From a virus (taxonomy: Duplodnaviria; Caudoviricetes): a DNA stretch of 64,000 nt. The position numbers and the translations under genes are program-made. Positions 6,045 to 20,836 of this stretch are shown one piece after another. Location of the stretch: positions 32,001-96,000 of the IMG/VR virus record IMGVR_UViG_3300028591_000081; one strand, given 5' to 3'. Numbering within the stretch: position 1 is the first letter of the stretch; each line of letters begins with the position of its first letter. Below the pieces are notes generated by a model, which saw nothing but the letters and a program-made list of their open reading frames with translations, had not been told where the DNA came from and searched no databases.

Positions 6045-6452
6045 TTACCATGTTCCGTCAGTGAACATCTCGCGGTCCAGATACCACTCCTTGTTGTCAT
6101 GGGCACCGTACTTCTTAAACCGTTTCGTCTTGGTGTCGAAGTACTCTCCGCGTTCTGTCTCAGTGTACCGAATATACGGACAAGCCTCTTTGAAAGCCTT
6201 TTTGCGAATGCCGGACATGATTCCGCTGAAGCTACGCATCGAAGGAAACGGCGAATCATTGTCGAACTTCAGCCCGGTGGGTCTGCAACAAATCCAGCCC
6301 TTAGACGGAAACGGACGACACGAATAGGCGAACATCCGCTCATCGTGTTCAGCACTAATCTCAGCACAACGCACAAGGTAATCCAGAGCCGTAATCTGCT
6401 TGTCCGTATATCCGTCACGTTTCAGAATCTGTACCGTCTCAGGCTTCAACAT
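6045..6452 (-). CDS. hypothetical protein
   Basis: ORF with GGAGGT RBS before MLKPE; first gene after promoter 6513-6552. Confidence 0.65.
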   Translation of the reverse strand: MLKPETVQILKRDGYTDKQITALDYLVRCAEISAEHDERMFAYSCRPFPSKGWICCRPTGLKFDNDSPFPSMRSFSGIMSGIRKKAFKEACPYIRYTETERGEYFDTKTKRFKKYGAHDNKEWYLDREMFTDGTW

Positions 6453-6512
6453 AGCTACCTCCACAACATCGAAGGATTCCCGGCCCGACCATCGAACCGG
6501 CTGACGGGTAGA

Positions 6513-14499: not shown

Positions 14500-15987
14500 T
14501 TACAGAGCGCGGAAATATGCCGTGAGGAAACTCAGGTCAGACGATTCGAAATCCCGAGCATTCAACAGACTCACGATCACCGTGACGAATACGTTGAATC
14601 GTATAGGCATCGACATGTCCTGCCCGTACAGAAGGTCGCCCAACTGAAGAACCCCAACGCAGGGCACATCCACACCCTCAATGTCATCCTCAATATCGTG
14701 ATACCCATCCATGTCTTCAACAGGGAAGAACTCCAAGCCACAAACAGGAAGTGTATTGAGAACAAGCTCAAAACCTTCCTGCAACTGCTCCTGTGTGGCA
14801 ATGTCGGACAGAAACTCCCGTACTCCGTGGCTGGCATAGAACGAGTACACGCCGCGATTCGTAAATACCGTATAATCAAAGATGCCAGAATCCTCCTTCT
14901 CATCACATTCCAGAGGGCGATAAGAACAACCCAACACTATGCCGTCAAAGGTGTAATGAGGCATCTCTGTGATCACATGTTTTTGTTCACGTACAGTGAA
15001 CGTTACATCATGTTTATCTGGGTCTAAGTTCACGTACTGAGGCTTGCTAGATTCTTCGATGAACGGAATGTCTTTCATACCCATGCAGATCAGGTTCGGA
15101 GTCCTGCTTCTGTCGGGCTGGTCTGATCTGTCCGAAAGTAAGTCGCTGACGGTAGGACAGGTACAGTGCATAAACAGCCCAGCAGGGTCCTCGTCAGAAT
15201 CCGGAGAAGGTCGTGAAGCATCATCGTCTGGGGATTCGTCAGGATACTCCTGTACGGGATCTTCGTCATCAAAGGCATTTTCATCGGGATCGTCTTCAAC
15301 ACCGTGTCTATGAAGCATGAGGTAATCTGCATCAGAGTCTCCGGAGCTGTCCGGATCATTCGAGGCGTCCTCACACTTGGACACAACGTCAAATGCTTTC
15401 ATGGAATCCTTGAGAACCGCCTTCGAGAACCCAGCACCTGCACCCCTTGATTCATTCGCTTTGCGAGCATTCTTCCTGAACCACTCATCGGACTCCAAAG
15501 CCTGTCTCTGTTCTTCGGTCATCGAAGCGATCCTAAGAGGCTTGTTGTCAGGTTCAGTCATCTCGGACACACCAGAAGGAACACACACTTCTTCAGGCTC
15601 TGAGGACATGTCTACAACTGGGTCTTCCGACGTATCCGATACCCTTTCCTTACGAGACTTCATAGAGTTCATCCTCGGTTTCTTGCGAGGAGGTTCCACG
15701 TCTTCGACAGTAAGGTACTCTGAAGGGAGCTTTGCCAGCCGAAAAGGTTTTTCCTCAGGAACCTCAGGATGTACTGCTTCGGTACTCGACGGAACCTCAC
15801 ATACGGTGTCGCTTTCCATCACCGCCGTTTCCGTAGACTCGCTTAACTGAATCGGAACATCAGACACAGGGGCATCAGGTGCATCCGAAGATTCAACCAC
15901 CTCCGACACGACCTCTGAAGCTACACTATCCACGACCTCTGATTCAGGAATGACTTCAACTTTTTCCACGCGCTTTTTTCTCGCCAT
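14500..15987 (-). CDS. large acidic, largely disordered hypothetical protein
   Basis: Start at MARKK with GGAGAGGTG RBS, downstream of promoter 16044-16084. Confidence 0.65.
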   Translation of the reverse strand: MARKKRVEKVEVIPESEVVDSVASEVVSEVVESSDAPDAPVSDVPIQLSESTETAVMESDTVCEVPSSTEAVHPEVPEEKPFRLAKLPSEYLTVEDVEPPRKKPRMNSMKSRKERVSDTSEDPVVDMSSEPEEVCVPSGVSEMTEPDNKPLRIASMTEEQRQALESDEWFRKNARKANESRGAGAGFSKAVLKDSMKAFDVVSKCEDASNDPDSSGDSDADYLMLHRHGVEDDPDENAFDDEDPVQEYPDESPDDDASRPSPDSDEDPAGLFMHCTCPTVSDLLSDRSDQPDRSRTPNLICMGMKDIPFIEESSKPQYVNLDPDKHDVTFTVREQKHVITEMPHYTFDGIVLGCSYRPLECDEKEDSGIFDYTVFTNRGVYSFYASHGVREFLSDIATQEQLQEGFELVLNTLPVCGLEFFPVEDMDGYHDIEDDIEGVDVPCVGVLQLGDLLYGQDMSMPIRFNVFVTVIVSLLNARDFESSDLSFLTAYFRAL

Positions 15988-16043
15988 AACACCTCTCCAA
16001 AAATCACAGAATAAGTCCGACAGGACAAGACCACACGTACACC

Positions 16044-16084
16044 ATGATAGCACGCCAAAGGACACACCAAGTCTTTCAGCACCA
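16044..16084 (-). promoter_or_regulatory. phage TGGTGCTG-N24-TGC-TATCAT promoter
   Basis: Motif copy at the start of the leftward gene block. Confidence 0.7.
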
Positions 16085-16162
16085 CAGAAAAATCCTTTGC
16101 AAAGAGTTTGAATTGGCATTACAAGGCAACTCGGTCATGGCACAACTCCTAAAAGGCATGTC

Positions 16163-16200
16163 AAGAAAAGCCCCGTGAGAAATCATGGGGCTTTTCTTTT
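16163..16200. terminator. bidirectional terminator, left border of the non-coding hub
   Basis: AAGAAAAGCCCCGTGA-GAAA-TCATGGGGCTTTTCTT. Confidence 0.8.
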
Positions 16201-16278
16201 ACCCCAGCCCGCCGAAAGAACACAACCAAAAGTTGCACCATTCTCGAACCTTAGGCAAATAGTGGAGAAAACAGAACA

Positions 16279-16670
16279 CGTCCATAAAGGCACCTAGAAG
16301 GCTCTCTGACGCATTCCTTGAACTCCATGTGGGGTAACTAGGGGTACCCCTAAAATCGCTATCAGAGGGCCTGTTTTGACCACTCTACGGACACGTTTGA
16401 ATTAGGAGTCCCATGCAACATACCCCACCAGAAGGGGAACAATTAGTCAAACCATGAAATTATTGGGAAATGCGCACAAAACCTAGCCAACACGCAACGT
16501 CAAAACGAAAGTCCGCATAAAACCTAGTTAAAACAAACTTCGTCCGTAGAAGCACCTAGAAGGCTCTCTACGCGATTTTAGGGGTACCCATGTGTACTGG
16601 GAAGGGGTACCCCTAAAATCGCTCTCAGAACGCAAATTTTTGGGCCTCTATGGACACGTTTGAATCAGGA
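16279..16670. repeat. two ~130 bp imperfect direct repeats, each internally palindromic
   Basis: Copies 16279-16407 and 16541-16670 share GCACCTAGAAGGCTCTCT, GGGGTACCCCTAAAATCGCT and GGACACGTTTGAAT; copy 2 has a perfect 18-bp IR at 16572-16589/16605-16622. Confidence 0.85.
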
Positions 16671-16748
16671 TGGGAGGAGACGTGGATGGTACCCAACCAA
16701 AAGACTCCAAAAATTGGGTAGGTGAATTTCCGTGGGACAGCGTATGAG

Positions 16749-17091
16749 AACTAAAGCATCAGGAATTGGCCGGGAACGGAACTCAAGGTTGCATTCTGGT
16801 AGGGGAATGAACAGGAAATTGAGCTAAAGCATCAGGAATTGGCTGGAAACAGAACTCAAGGTTGCATTCGAGTATGTCAAAATCCGCAGAAAATGAAACT
16901 AAAGCAGGAAATAGGGTCTCATGGAATGCAGTCTGAGTTTTGAATCCATTGGCAGGGAAATAGAGTCTCATGGAATGCAGTCTGAGATTCACAGGCATAG
17001 AACAGGAACTCAAGGTTGCATTCTGGTAGGGAGAGGTATGAGAACCAAAACTAAAGCATCCAGAGTAGGCATGGAACTCAAGGTTGCATTC
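16749..17091. repeat. iteron-like repeat cluster
   Basis: GAACTCAAGGTTGCATTC x4 (16779, 16852, 17006, 17074); CTAAAGCA x4; GGAAATAGRGTCTCATGGAATGCAGTCTGAG x2 (16907, 16956) carrying an inverted variant of the 18-mer. Confidence 0.85.
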
Positions 17092-17239
17092 CATTACAGG
17101 ACTTTCAGAATGATGGAATGTCAACAAACTCTAGCAATGATGAAGAAATTCTCAATTCAGGAACTCTCCAAAAATCACCCATATAATTATATCAACCCAC
17201 AAAAATTCAGATCCACCGCATAAATCCTAGAGATTTGAT

Positions 17240-17256
17240 TTGGCACGGTTCTTGCA
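17240..17256 (+). promoter_or_regulatory. sigma54 (RpoN) -24/-12 consensus site
   Basis: TTGGCACGGTTCTTGCA matches YTGGCACG-N4-TTGCW. Confidence 0.65.
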
Positions 17257-17331
17257 AAAATTACAATTAAGAAATGTGCTATTCACATTTCTAGGATGTA
17301 TATATACATCCTATACTGTAATAAATAATAA

Positions 17332-17348
17332 AGCAAGAACCGTGCCAA
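17332..17348 (-). promoter_or_regulatory. sigma54 (RpoN) -24/-12 consensus site
   Basis: Reverse complement TTGGCACGGTTCTTGCT, facing the + strand copy. Confidence 0.65.
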
Positions 17349-17462
17349 AATTATTTTGTAGAATTGGTGCGGGTTTAAGTCTATTTTTGTGATTGCTCAT
17401 TATTATTGATCACTTGGAGGTCTTTGAGGTTTTGTGTTGACTTCAGAAAGTTGCCTTGGTAC

Positions 17463-17496
17463 AAAAAAAGCCGGAAGAGTTCTTCCGGCTTTTTTT
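17463..17496. terminator. bidirectional terminator, right border of the non-coding hub
   Basis: A7-GCCGGAAG-AGTT-CTTCCGGC-T7. Confidence 0.8.
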
Positions 17497-17550
17497 GAGG
17501 CATTTGGGAGATGCCTCTGATAACACAGCTTTTGTAAAGGAGATCAAGCT

Positions 17551-18351
17551 ATGTTCGAGAGTTTAGATAACACACCTGCTTTGAAAGCACAACCTACTTC
17601 ACTAAATTTTTCCTTGGATGCTGATGGAAAGATCATCCGAGCTTTGATTGGAGATGGGTTTATTTTCCTGTGTTGTGAGGATTTGAACGAGGATTTTCGC
17701 AAATTTTCTCAGTATTTTACGGGTAGGAAGCTCAAGAAGTATGTGGAATCCACAATTAGCAGAGATGGGGAGTTTCTTGATACGCATGAAATTTCCCTAT
17801 TGTTGAAGCAACACTGGGTCTCCTGCTGGGAAAATTTTGAAGTTCCTCTGACCCCTGCCCAAAGAACCTGTCTGCTTCGAGAGAACCTCCGATTTGGATA
17901 CATGCTTTGTAAGGTGCATCAAGACCCAGAGAACGCTCCTGTGTGTACAGTCACTGACATCAAGTGTGGAAAGTCTTTTCATGTCTATGACTGGTTTGTC
18001 AAATCTGTGGAAAGCAACCGAATCTATGTCACAACACTTCAAATTCGGAAGTTCTGGCCTGTTGAAGTTGCAGAGCAGGTTTTGGCGTACAAGTCCACTT
18101 CCCTCAGTTCTTTGTCCTTTGCGCTTTCTTCCAAAGTGGCTGAGTATTACAAGAGTGTATCCTCGTTTTCCGACAAAGTGATGGCCAGATACTACTTGTT
18201 GCCATGCTCTAATCTTCCGGAATCTTACCGGAAGGAGTTCATGTCCAGCCCCTATTGTGGGGTCTACCCTTACTTCGTACTGCGTAAGATAGGTTTCCCG
18301 AAGAGTGCTTACCTTGAGCAAGTAATTGCAGACAACCACCTGAAGATCTGA
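17551..18351 (+). CDS. hypothetical protein
   Basis: 266 aa ORF with AAGGAG RBS; first gene right of the hub. Confidence 0.7.
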   Translation: MFESLDNTPALKAQPTSLNFSLDADGKIIRALIGDGFIFLCCEDLNEDFRKFSQYFTGRKLKKYVESTISRDGEFLDTHEISLLLKQHWVSCWENFEVPLTPAQRTCLLRENLRFGYMLCKVHQDPENAPVCTVTDIKCGKSFHVYDWFVKSVESNRIYVTTLQIRKFWPVEVAEQVLAYKSTSLSSLSFALSSKVAEYYKSVSSFSDKVMARYYLLPCSNLPESYRKEFMSSPYCGVYPYFVLRKIGFPKSAYLEQVIADNHLKI

Positions 18352-18367
18352 TGGAGGGATAACGGTC

Positions 18368-18808
18368 ATGTTCTCGCCCTATGTTCAAATGCATCGCAGT
18401 ATCATCCGGCTGGAAGGTCTCTTGAAGGCTGTTTCGAGTTTCTCCAGTCCTTTGTGTTCTCCATGGTCTCTGGATACTCAGGCGGATTACGTTAAGCAAT
18501 TCTTCATGTATGGTTCCTTTCCGGCCCCTTTCATCCTCGGGTATCCAGAGGGTTTGTCAGGGGAAGTTCTCGACGGCCACAAACGTCTGCACGCCATTAG
18601 GAACTTTATGGACAATCAGGTATTCTTGATGTCCGTTCCATTTGCCCCTGAACTGAACTGCAAGTACTATCGTGATATGCCCGAGGTCATTCAGAGGTAC
18701 TTTACCTATGCTTTGGTGGATGTGATGGAAGTTCATACTACGCATGTTGACGACCCGACGTATCAACAGCTTCGTGAGAGTTTCCGAGACCCTATGCTTA
18801 GGTTTTAA
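18368..18808 (+). CDS. DUF262/ParB-like domain protein
   Basis: GSFPAPFIL...VLDGHKRLHAIRNF resembles the DUF262 GxPxP/DGQQR motifs. Confidence 0.6.
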   Translation: MFSPYVQMHRSIIRLEGLLKAVSSFSSPLCSPWSLDTQADYVKQFFMYGSFPAPFILGYPEGLSGEVLDGHKRLHAIRNFMDNQVFLMSVPFAPELNCKYYRDMPEVIQRYFTYALVDVMEVHTTHVDDPTYQQLRESFRDPMLRF

Positions 18809-18814
18809 TGTCCC

Positions 18815-20836
18815 ATGGCTAATCTGCACGCTATCAGCAATGTTCTCAAGCAGTTACAGGTGAAGAAACCTGAACTCAAAGAGCCACTTGTACCCATACG
18901 TGACTGGGTACAAGACCCGTATTATGTCGGTGAGGGAGGGGTGTTCAAGTGGAACGACGGCGTGCCGACTGGCATCTACCCATACTACCAAGACTTCCTG
19001 TGTGACCTGTTTGAGTATGAGAACAAGTACGACATGGTGGTTATCTCCGGCGGCATCGGCGGCGGTAAGACTTCAGTCGGTCTATACTGCTTCATCCGCA
19101 AGCTCTATGAGCAGAGCGTGTACAACAACATTCAGGGACGCTACGGGCTTATGCCAACCTCCCCCATTGTTTTCCTGTACTTCTGTGCCGTATCCAAGTT
19201 CATGGCTATCCGACTTGGTAAACAGTTACGTGAAATTATTGACACCATCCCGTACTTTCGAGAGAAGTTCCCAAGGGATGAGCACATAGACTCTGAATTA
19301 CGTTTCCCGAACAATGTGTCGGTCTTGTTCGGTACTGGCGAAGGGGACATGATCGGTAACAACGTCATCGCCAGTATTATCGACGAGGCCAACTTCAAGG
19401 GAGATGCTACCGGCGATTCTGGCTCCCTTACCGAAATGCAGAAGATGCATCATGCGGTTCTTTCCAGACAAGCCTCGCGATTTTCGTTTGGCGGGAAGAA
19501 TTATGGCATGAACATCGTCATCTCCTCTGCCACGACGAGCAACTCCTATACGGAATACTTGTTCAAGAAAGCACAGGAGGATCCACGATCCAAGGCAATC
19601 AATGTTCGCACTTGGGAAGTGAAGCCTTGGGCACACAAGAAGGAACGGTTTTATGTGTTCTGCGGGAATGAGAAGTACGAACCCTTTGTGATGGACAGCC
19701 CTCAGAAAATCGAGAGTCAGCTCAACCTTCCTGTCGATCACAGCAAGACTCTTTCTGAAATCGTGAAAGAGCTTCCTCAGGACATCCGTCGTCTGGTGGA
19801 TGAGGTTCCGGTGGATAGGAAGGACGACTATGAGCGAGACATTTACTTAGCTCTTCGAGACATCTCTGGAGTGTCTGTGTATGCGCAGGGTAAGCTGTTT
19901 CAGGACAAGCACGTGTTCGACCAGTGTATCGACAGCTCTATTCCTGTCTTGTTCAGTAAGAACGAATTCTCCATTGAGACCAACAACGACTCGCCAACGA
20001 ACTGCATTCAGTACTATCTGGAGCGTTCCTTTGTAGATCCAGACAGGCCACGCTTCATCCACATCGACTTAGGTCTGACGAATGACGCCACAGGTATCGC
20101 CTGTTGTTACAAATCCGGGGAAACCGTGGCCGACGGTGTGCGAACACCCATCTACACCTTCGATTTCTCGTTACGAATCGTCCCGCCGCCACTTCCACGT
20201 AAGATTTCCATTGCCCGTGTCAACGAGTTCATCATGTTCTTGTCGAAGCGGTTGCACATCGGAATGGTGTCAATGGATCAGTTTCAAAGCTCGTCGAGCT
20301 TGCAGTTCTTTGAAGAGAACCGCATCCCATGCCGCTACCAGAGTGTTGACCGAACCGATAAGGCGTATCTGTTCTTCGTGGACTGTATGTACCGGAAGAT
20401 CGTCAAGTTCCCGTCAGACTTTGCGGAGGCGATAAAGCACGAGCTGTTCAATCTGGACTGGAATAGGGATAAACACAAAGTGGATCACCCGAGTGATACG
20501 GCGCACGGCGGCATGAAAGATCGTATGGATGCCGTCGTGGGTGCACTTTACAATGCTTACGAAATCCAGACACCGTCGTATAATCCGCAGGACTTGCTTA
20601 CCCTCGCCATGCATAACCCTATTGAACACATCTCGTGGCGCGACGAGAACCACTATGGGACATCATCAGATCCTCAGAAGGATACAATGCCTCAGGAATT
20701 TGTTACCTCATGTGCAGACGAGAGGGAACTGCTTTCCATTCCTCTGACCCCTACTGTGAAAGACGACATGACTGAAGTCAACCGAAGCATGATTGATTGG
20801 GACAGCGTCATGCATCCGAAGGGTTCTGAGGAGTAG
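18815..20836 (+). CDS. terminase large subunit
   Basis: Walker A GGIGGGKT, Walker B IIDEANF, coupling motif ISSA, nuclease HIDLGLTNDATG, DHP...KDRMDA. Confidence 0.9.
   Translation: MANLHAISNVLKQLQVKKPELKEPLVPIRDWVQDPYYVGEGGVFKWNDGVPTGIYPYYQDFLCDLFEYENKYDMVVISGGIGGGKTSVGLYCFIRKLYEQSVYNNIQGRYGLMPTSPIVFLYFCAVSKFMAIRLGKQLREIIDTIPYFREKFPRDEHIDSELRFPNNVSVLFGTGEGDMIGNNVIASIIDEANFKGDATGDSGSLTEMQKMHHAVLSRQASRFSFGGKNYGMNIVISSATTSNSYTEYLFKKAQEDPRSKAINVRTWEVKPWAHKKERFYVFCGNEKYEPFVMDSPQKIESQLNLPVDHSKTLSEIVKELPQDIRRLVDEVPVDRKDDYERDIYLALRDISGVSVYAQGKLFQDKHVFDQCIDSSIPVLFSKNEFSIETNNDSPTNCIQYYLERSFVDPDRPRFIHIDLGLTNDATGIACCYKSGETVADGVRTPIYTFDFSLRIVPPPLPRKISIARVNEFIMFLSKRLHIGMVSMDQFQSSSSLQFFEENRIPCRYQSVDRTDKAYLFFVDCMYRKIVKFPSDFAEAIKHELFNLDWNRDKHKVDHPSDTAHGGMKDRMDAVVGALYNAYEIQTPSYNPQDLLTLAMHNPIEHISWRDENHYGTSSDPQKDTMPQEFVTSCADERELLSIPLTPTVKDDMTEVNRSMIDWDSVMHPKGSEE

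Follow-up and report, generated by a model that had tools for sequence, protein, structure and literature searches.

What is the role of a gene-free stretch of phage DNA in which two perfect sigma-54-type promoter sites face each other with no gene immediately downstream of either? The window analysed here is a stretch of 64,000 nucleotides, namely bases 32001-96000 of a 227,618-bp IMG/VR phage record that is rated 96% complete; positions are those of the window unless given as genome positions. The phage is T4-like in several genes (UvsX-like RecA, deoxynucleoside kinase, thymidylate synthase, NrdD/NrdG), and in its relatives a T4-type portal and a gp25-like baseplate protein adjoin the terminase. 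To our knowledge, the origins of large uncultivated phages have almost never been located. Because a perfect pair of inward-pointing sites, the AT-richest core and a flip of base skew coincide, the locus is probably the replication origin of the phage, and an origin-like core at 17183-17406 is well supported by four independent signs in the DNA that converge on one directly testable element of 225 bp.

A gene-free hub between divergent gene blocks

The hub spans ~1.3-1.4 kb (16120-17550) without genes, and no gene is oriented into it. The flip of gene orientation placed here by the initial annotation was recovered, with a block of minus-strand genes to the left and a block of plus-strand genes to the right, the latter running from a 266-aa protein over a 146-aa protein to the large terminase. 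The features of the hub and its right flank are:

16163-16198, both strands: left terminator hairpin, bidirectional, closing the hub on the left
16268-16670: two ~140-nt repeat units with a GGGGTACCCCTAAAATCGC box, and two further CCGCAYAAAACCTAG boxes (16472, 16513)
16748-17101: iteron-like repeat field with four GAACTCAAGGTTGCATTC copies, CTAAAGCATC boxes and two inverted 34-mers
17183-17206: outer left arm of the extended dyad, pairing with 17383-17406
17216-17255: left 40-nt arm of the inverted repeat, beginning with the box CCGCATAAATCCTAG (17216-17230)
17240-17256, plus strand: left sigma-54-type -24/-12 site TTGGCACGGTTCTTGCA, pointing right
17257-17331: AT-rich core, 75 bp, 79% AT, candidate DNA unwinding element
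17270-17292: palindrome 1, with 9-bp stems and a 5-nt loop
17292-17313: palindrome 2, the perfect 22-mer TAGGATGTATATATACATCCTA
17332-17348, minus strand: right sigma-54-type site TTGGCACGGTTCTTGCT, pointing left
17333-17372: right 40-nt arm of the inverted repeat
17383-17406: outer right arm of the extended dyad
17462-17497, both strands: right intrinsic-terminator hairpin, bidirectional, -25.5 and -24.3 kcal/mol on the two strands
17551-18351, plus strand: 266-aa protein, assigned to no family, first gene right of the hub
18815-20836, plus strand: terminase large subunit (TerL), 673 aa, without intein

Two perfect sites as the arms of one inverted repeat

Sigma-54 requires GG, GC and the spacing between them, tolerates TGGCAT and any spacer, and its holoenzyme forms stable closed complexes without an activator. 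The two face-to-face sites that had been described as TTGGCACGGTTCTTGC(A/T) are present at 17240-17256 on the plus strand and 17332-17348 on the minus strand, each as a perfect TGGCAC-N5-TTGCW. The proposed match to the RpoN consensus extends to the exact 10-nt spacing of GG and GC and, in both sites, to a Y before TGG, a G after CAC and a W after TTGC. Exact copies of TGGCAC-N5-TTGCW number two in the window against 0.02 expected, a count reached in 0 of 100 shuffles, and these two are the only ones in the whole 227,618-bp genome. Being parts of a single inverted repeat, the two copies represent one event and not two. The probability that arms of this kind match about 12 positions of the extended sigma-54 consensus perfectly by chance is ~1e-5 to 1e-6 per element. 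The left (plus-strand) site doubles as a 10/12 sigma-70-type promoter, TTGGCA-16-TACAAT, that is conserved in the related contigs L131, L132 and L139.

Sigma-54 as a general promoter class of this phage was considered and rejected, since the motif with one or two mismatches is genome-wide no commoner than in the reversed sequence.

The sites form the inner ends of a nested dyad of ~225 bp (17183-17406). Imperfect inverted arms ending in the sites had been claimed at a length of ~60 bp; the arms exist, and their size resolved into 40-nt arms (78% complementary) plus a separate outer pair. Between them, the core holds the AT-richest 50-, 75- and 100-bp segments of the genome, all 227.6 kb having been scanned, and both sites are, by the direction in which they read, aimed into the AT-richest 75 bp. 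The two core palindromes lie at 17270-17292 and 17292-17313, as annotated. As a single strand, the dyad is predicted to adopt a T-shaped fold of -38 kcal/mol (z = -9.8), with no preference for either strand; that both strands fold equally well points to a constraint at the level of DNA rather than RNA. A protelomerase target (tel) palindrome was considered for the dyad and set aside, no PF16684 match being present in the genome.

Base skew changes sign at the locus

The base-skew flip proposed for the locus is borne out by the whole genome, where the cumulative GC skew has its minimum at genome 47-50 kb, with the locus at 49.2 kb, and its maximum at 144 kb. Because gene orientation flips at the skew minimum, the effects of orientation and of genome arm were separated. 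In both genome arms, GC3 skew is ~+0.06 in genes pointing away from the locus, which are co-oriented with the proposed fork, and ~-0.12 in counter-oriented genes pointing towards it; the effect of the genome arm on GC3 (0.089) is larger than that of orientation (-0.025). When a model was given two switches, an origin at 48-54 kb and a terminus at 144-146 kb, its residual sum of squares fell from 2222 to 1184. The GC3 switch that is independent of gene orientation lies at 48-54 kb, which fixes its position only to within ~3 kb, and skew cannot prove where replication initiates. The bidirectional origin that had been suggested for the locus gained the skew switch, the AT extreme, the repeat field and the compensated dyad in its favour, and its sigma-54 part stands at the sequence level only.

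The second skew switch, at 144-146 kb, lies a few kb from the only three tRNA genes of the phage (Tyr-GTA, Leu-CAA and Leu-CAG), which are found at genome 139840-140560, outside the window.

Relatives keep the dyad more widely than the sigma-54 cores

Public phage records contained no close DNA or protein relatives of the hub or of the left-flank protein, and scans of IMG/VR and JGI with the flanking proteins and the hub boxes returned no relatives. Relatives were obtained solely from ENA and Logan contigs, via TerL, the 266-aa protein and the 495-aa protein, and six contigs were informative. Those that bear on the dyad are:

L131: 95% identical over the hub, dyad identical
L132: 82% identical, both sites kept, TGGCAC changed to TGGCAT in both arms
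L139: 76% identical, both sites kept exactly
L135: more distant, with 43% identity in the 266-aa homologue; two palindromes still flanked by inverted outer CCGCATAAATACTAG boxes, sigma-54 cores degenerate
L129: close relative with 94% identity in TerL; the place of the dyad is taken by another nested palindrome, also AT-rich, and a small ribbon-helix-helix-like gene

Conservation of the GG and GC dinucleotides, named earlier as the check on the sigma-54 assignment, held in part. L131, L132 and L139 retain GG-N10-GC in 6/6 sites; in the right site, the -11 base is G in L132 and L139. The cores of L135 are degenerate, one arm reading TTGGCATGAATCTTGA (GC to GA) and the other having no GG at the right place, and in L129 the module is replaced, with the left half of the hub conserved. 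Because L135 has the boxes and palindromes without intact cores and L129 carries a replacement, the comparison of contigs indicates that the dyad architecture is older and more general than the sigma-54 cores; by the same comparison, the cores belong to one sub-lineage and are under strong constraint there.

This constraint covers more than the promoter motif. The dyad arms of L132 and L139 are 94-100% identical against 67-78% in the flanking non-coding DNA, the left arm alone reaching 96-100% in relatives with flanks of 67-78% identity, and within each arm the N5 spacer and another 25 nt vary no more than GG and GC do. Pairing is kept where bases change. The stem of palindrome 1 is retained with altered bases in L132 and L139; in palindrome 2 the GGATGT/ACATCC stem is invariant, the outer T:A pair is C:G in L132 and L139, and the centre varies; the outer stem shows compensatory CA>TG and TG>CA changes in L139 and is a perfect 15-bp stem in L132. 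Sigma-54 explains the invariant spacer and the concerted change of both arms no better than pairing of the arms would, or recognition of the entire arm by a protein.

The replacement module of L129 (L129:5837-6030 and 6273-6500) consists of a ~190-bp AT-rich nested palindrome, built from two identical ~48-nt hairpins around a third dyad, and an adjoining gene of 75 aa, which looks ribbon-helix-helix-like by eye.

The 266-aa neighbour as a candidate partner of the dyad

The first protein encoded right of the hub is a candidate DNA-binding partner of the dyad. In L139, which retains the dyad, its identity is 83%. Its counterpart in L129 (L129:6595-7416) is alike only over the C-terminal ~110 aa, at 27% identity, and the N-terminal 150 residues of that protein are unrelated to those of the window's protein in a contig whose TerL is 94% identical. 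The protein has a swappable N-terminal half, and in L129 the dyad module is replaced along with it, a joint variation of gene and dyad that could result from adjacency alone. The predicted structure (pLDDT 81) has two domains. Comparison of the model with APSES/KilA-N/Dachshund-type DNA-binding domains (VIA-align) gave weak matches of Z 4.4-7.2, which lie below a trustworthy level; Foldseek returned no match for the model, and no Pfam family was found across the relatives of the protein. Neither the 266-aa nor the 146-aa protein has a match to a small terminase (TerS) family or fold.

Terminators, a second promoter-like sequence and repeats

Terminators had been annotated at both ends of the hub, and strong hairpins with an A-run before and a T-run after them were found at 17462-17497 and 16163-16198, both bidirectional. 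The right one is conserved in L131, L132 and L139. A further promoter-like sequence, TTGACT-17-TACAAA at 17437-17465, is invariant in the same three contigs, so transcription of the rightward operon does not have to rely on the sigma-54 site. A transcript starting from it would miss the 5' arm of the hairpin and read into the 266-aa/terminase operon. TTGACT-17-TACAAA overlaps the left half of the right terminator hairpin.

The iteron-like field is partly conserved in L129, L131, L136 and L139 and could serve as a sigma-54 enhancer. Theta origins of the iteron type (lambda, plasmids) combine direct repeats beside an AT-rich region with a cognate initiator gene; of these, the hub has the repeats, and for the neighbouring 266-aa protein there are only the weak DNA-binding-fold matches given above. 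The region of the ~140-nt repeat units is conserved in seven related contigs; the consensus RNA fold of the units is weak and not convincing, and no known RNA family gave a match near threshold. For the box CCGCAYAAAWCCTAG, the three closest matches (0-1 mismatch) are all inside the hub, and at <=2 mismatches the window contains 5 matches against 0.25 expected.

The four iteron copies (16778-16796, 16851-16869, 17005-17023 and 17073-17091) read GGAAC-N6-TTGCA and differ from the sigma-54 core GGCAC-N5-TTGCA by one base change and one extra spacer base. This likeness may be due to chance or to a decayed or derived relationship.

Sigma-54 machinery and sites in other phages

No sigma-54 activator was detected in the phage genome, the only PF00158 match being a clamp-loader-like ATPase without GAFTGA, and neither RpoN nor sigma-70 region 2 or a sigma-70-family factor was found there. 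A PF04552 match of 10.6 bits, considered as a phage RpoN, lies in a virion-cargo-like polyprotein and was taken as chance. For the host, a CRISPR-repeat scan of species genomes gave no match, and a formate channel (FNT) provides a weak hint at Bacillota, with one irrelevant genome match besides.

The same sigma-54-type 16-mer was found in at least 120 viral contigs. Among the 120 listed, 64 have further TGGCAY-N5-TTGC copies nearby, amounting to 145 extra copies against ~4 expected, in tandem arrays and in 22 convergent pairs. On these counts, sigma-54-type sites are clearly genuine in phages, and since they are so strongly enriched in phage contigs, use of sigma-54 at the present locus is plausible.

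In the unrelated viral contigs L024, L025, L042, L054, L068, L098 and L104, the convergent sites are often only 4-7 bp apart and form one long palindrome, TGGCAC-N5-TTGC-N4-7-GCAA-N5-GTGCCA, which is hard to reconcile with two working promoters.

A proposed origin and its rivals

The explanation we put first, tentatively and at somewhat below an even chance, is an origin core on the plan of T4 origins, in which a promoter adjoins an unwinding element, here doubled and made symmetric, with sigma-54-type promoters. The gene-free hub would be a bidirectional replication origin with the ~225-bp dyad at 17183-17406 as its core, in which the 75-bp AT-rich centre would act as the unwinding element between two mirror-image arms. 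Each arm would offer a phage-specific box (CCGCATAAATCCTAG) followed by a perfect host sigma-54 polymerase site facing the core, and on each the sigma-54 holoenzyme would wait as a closed complex until an AAA+ activator fires it, directing transcription into the AT-rich core. The two short convergent RNAs could open the core or persist as R-loops that prime leading strands both ways. Binding and firing of sigma-54, R-loop priming and origin function are what we infer from this arrangement. The more specific idea that the host sigma-54 polymerase is the licensing and priming device, with an activator through which phage replication would begin in response to a host signal, we consider unlikely; should such licensing hold, the site clusters of other large phages could be related origin or licensing elements. 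Against the proposed origin with sigma-54-type promoters speak the lack of a phage-encoded activator or RpoN among the genes found, the single pair of sites with the motif not otherwise enriched in the genome, the boxes and palindromes that L135 keeps without intact cores, and the other module present in L129.

The same core could be an origin or another DNA-level control element in which sigma-54 has no role and the likeness to its promoter is incidental, the arms being mirror-image sites for a phage protein, laid out as initiator sites are around the unwinding element in archaeal ORB-DUE-ORB and herpesvirus oriS/oriL, or pairing mutually in single-stranded DNA. We regard this as somewhat unlikely. 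Conservation of whole arms beyond GG and GC, the concerted C>T change in L132, the compensatory changes in outer stem and palindromes, the single-strand fold (-38 kcal/mol, z = -9.8) and the inverted CCGCATAAATACTAG boxes of L135 without sigma-54 cores all agree with it, as does a neighbouring gene that changes along with the dyad (83% identity in L139, an unrelated N-terminal half in L129) and whose product has weak DNA-binding-fold matches. These matches (Z 4.4-7.2) are, however, below trust level, adjacency to the dyad could account for the joint variation, a perfect consensus arising in the arms by chance is very improbable (~1e-5 to 1e-6 per element), and real sigma-54-type clusters are common in phage contigs. 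Docking of sigma-54 without initiation, whether the complexes act as roadblocks insulating the core or, with the multiplying phage genome, form a sink that draws scarce host sigma-54 from its regulon, would suit the stable closed complexes that form without activator, a phage in which no activator gene was detected, and the frequency in phage contigs of arrays and abutting convergent pairs (4-7 bp) that could hardly act as promoters; a sink of two sites per genome would be weak beside the arrays of 8-20 sites found elsewhere, and the placement around the AT-richest stretch and the conserved dyad are left unexplained, which makes this very unlikely.

Two further readings leave both the skew switch and the AT extreme unexplained. 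Under the one, which appears distinctly improbable, the face-to-face promoters (sigma-54, with sigma-70 on the plus arm) form a transcription switch in place of a replication primer: a ~230-nt rightward and a ~1.15-kb leftward RNA, with 5' ends overlapping across the two hairpins like IS10 RNA-IN/RNA-OUT, would act through antisense pairing or transcriptional interference to regulate the divergent operons for early functions and packaging. The predicted starts (~17267 and ~17321) exactly bracket the two conserved hairpins, L131, L132 and L139 share the 10/12 sigma-70 promoter of the plus arm, and both flanking hairpins are good terminators for outward transcripts, though no gene points into the hub. 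The position of the right terminator is retained in distant relatives despite a different sequence, but in L133, L135 and L129 its T-run lies on the minus strand, so that it would stop inward and not outward transcripts; nor do the missing RNA family match, the folding energies without strand preference or the unconvincing consensus fold of the repeat units suggest a functional RNA. The other reading takes the hub as a packaging-initiation (pac or cos-like) region with the small terminase encoded alongside and the dyad as recognition or cutting site. It draws on the location immediately before the 266-aa and 146-aa genes and TerL, on repeats that flank a dyad, and on the variable N-terminal and conserved C-terminal half of the 266-aa protein, as in small terminases. 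Since that protein matches no terminase small-subunit family or fold, and relatives with ~80% identical TerL have TerL in another neighbourhood without the hub, the probability of a packaging site is slight.

Relation to known origins and promoters

Origins of T4 combine a promoter with an unwinding element and form an R-loop primer (PMC3016281). The proposed core resembles oriF (uvsY) and oriG in having promoters aimed into an adjacent AT-rich unwinding element, and at oriF and oriG the transcript is thought to persist as an R-loop that primes the leading strand (PMC3016281). A T4-type portal, a gp25-like baseplate protein, a UvsX-like recombinase and NrdDG in the phage or its relatives add to the likeness. 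T4 differs in using a MotA-dependent sigma-70 middle promoter, one per origin and without a large dyad, whereas the phage studied here has two convergent sigma-54-type sites around a nested palindrome, known from the sequence alone, as is their likeness to RpoN promoters, which consists in the exact -24 GG/-12 GC spacing and the extended consensus.

The sigma-54 sites of Pseudomonas phage YuA reportedly head genes. In contrast to YuA and to RpoN promoters in general, the present sites face each other and have no gene immediately downstream of them, and neither an activator nor an enhancer was identified. Dependence of YuA on host sigma-54 is reported in PMC5053324, citing Ceyssens et al. 2008. 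Published precedent for the use of sigma-54 by phages is thin.

In archaeal ORB-DUE-ORB origins and in herpes simplex oriS/oriL, inverted initiator sites surround an AT-rich centre, and oriS/oriL lie between divergent genes. The hub is similar in its mirror-image conserved arms flanking the AT-richest stretch, its central palindrome and its divergent gene blocks; the initiator proteins of those systems are unrelated, and the arm cores of the hub coincide in sequence with a site for host RNA polymerase.

If the sigma-54 holoenzyme does act at the dyad, this would be the first origin gated by an enhancer-dependent polymerase, and it would give a function to the unexplained clusters of sigma-54-type sites that recur in phage metagenomes. 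If it does not, a clear phage origin core would still be at hand whose arms mimic a host promoter, which would call for caution with motif-based promoter calls in phage genomes.

Further observations on the flanking genes

The TerL of this phage is free of an intein, and many TerL homologues (P0002, P0006, P0012, P0014, P0017 and others) are 1040-1120 aa long and carry LAGLIDADG/intein domains. The 146-aa protein (18368-18808), encoded between the 266-aa gene and TerL, contains the motif LDGHKRLHAI, reminiscent of nuclease or CTPase domains of the ParB/Srx type; Pfam gave no match, and the protein falls into two PHROGs only, with no function assigned. For the left-flank reading frame on the minus strand (14500-16119), the start is probably Met45 (MARKKRVEKVEVIPES...); homologues of its protein are 479-495 aa long, and the longer frame contains a promoter box of the TGGTGCTG type. 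The left-flank protein is very acidic with a basic leader, as in the cargo proteins of the same genome.
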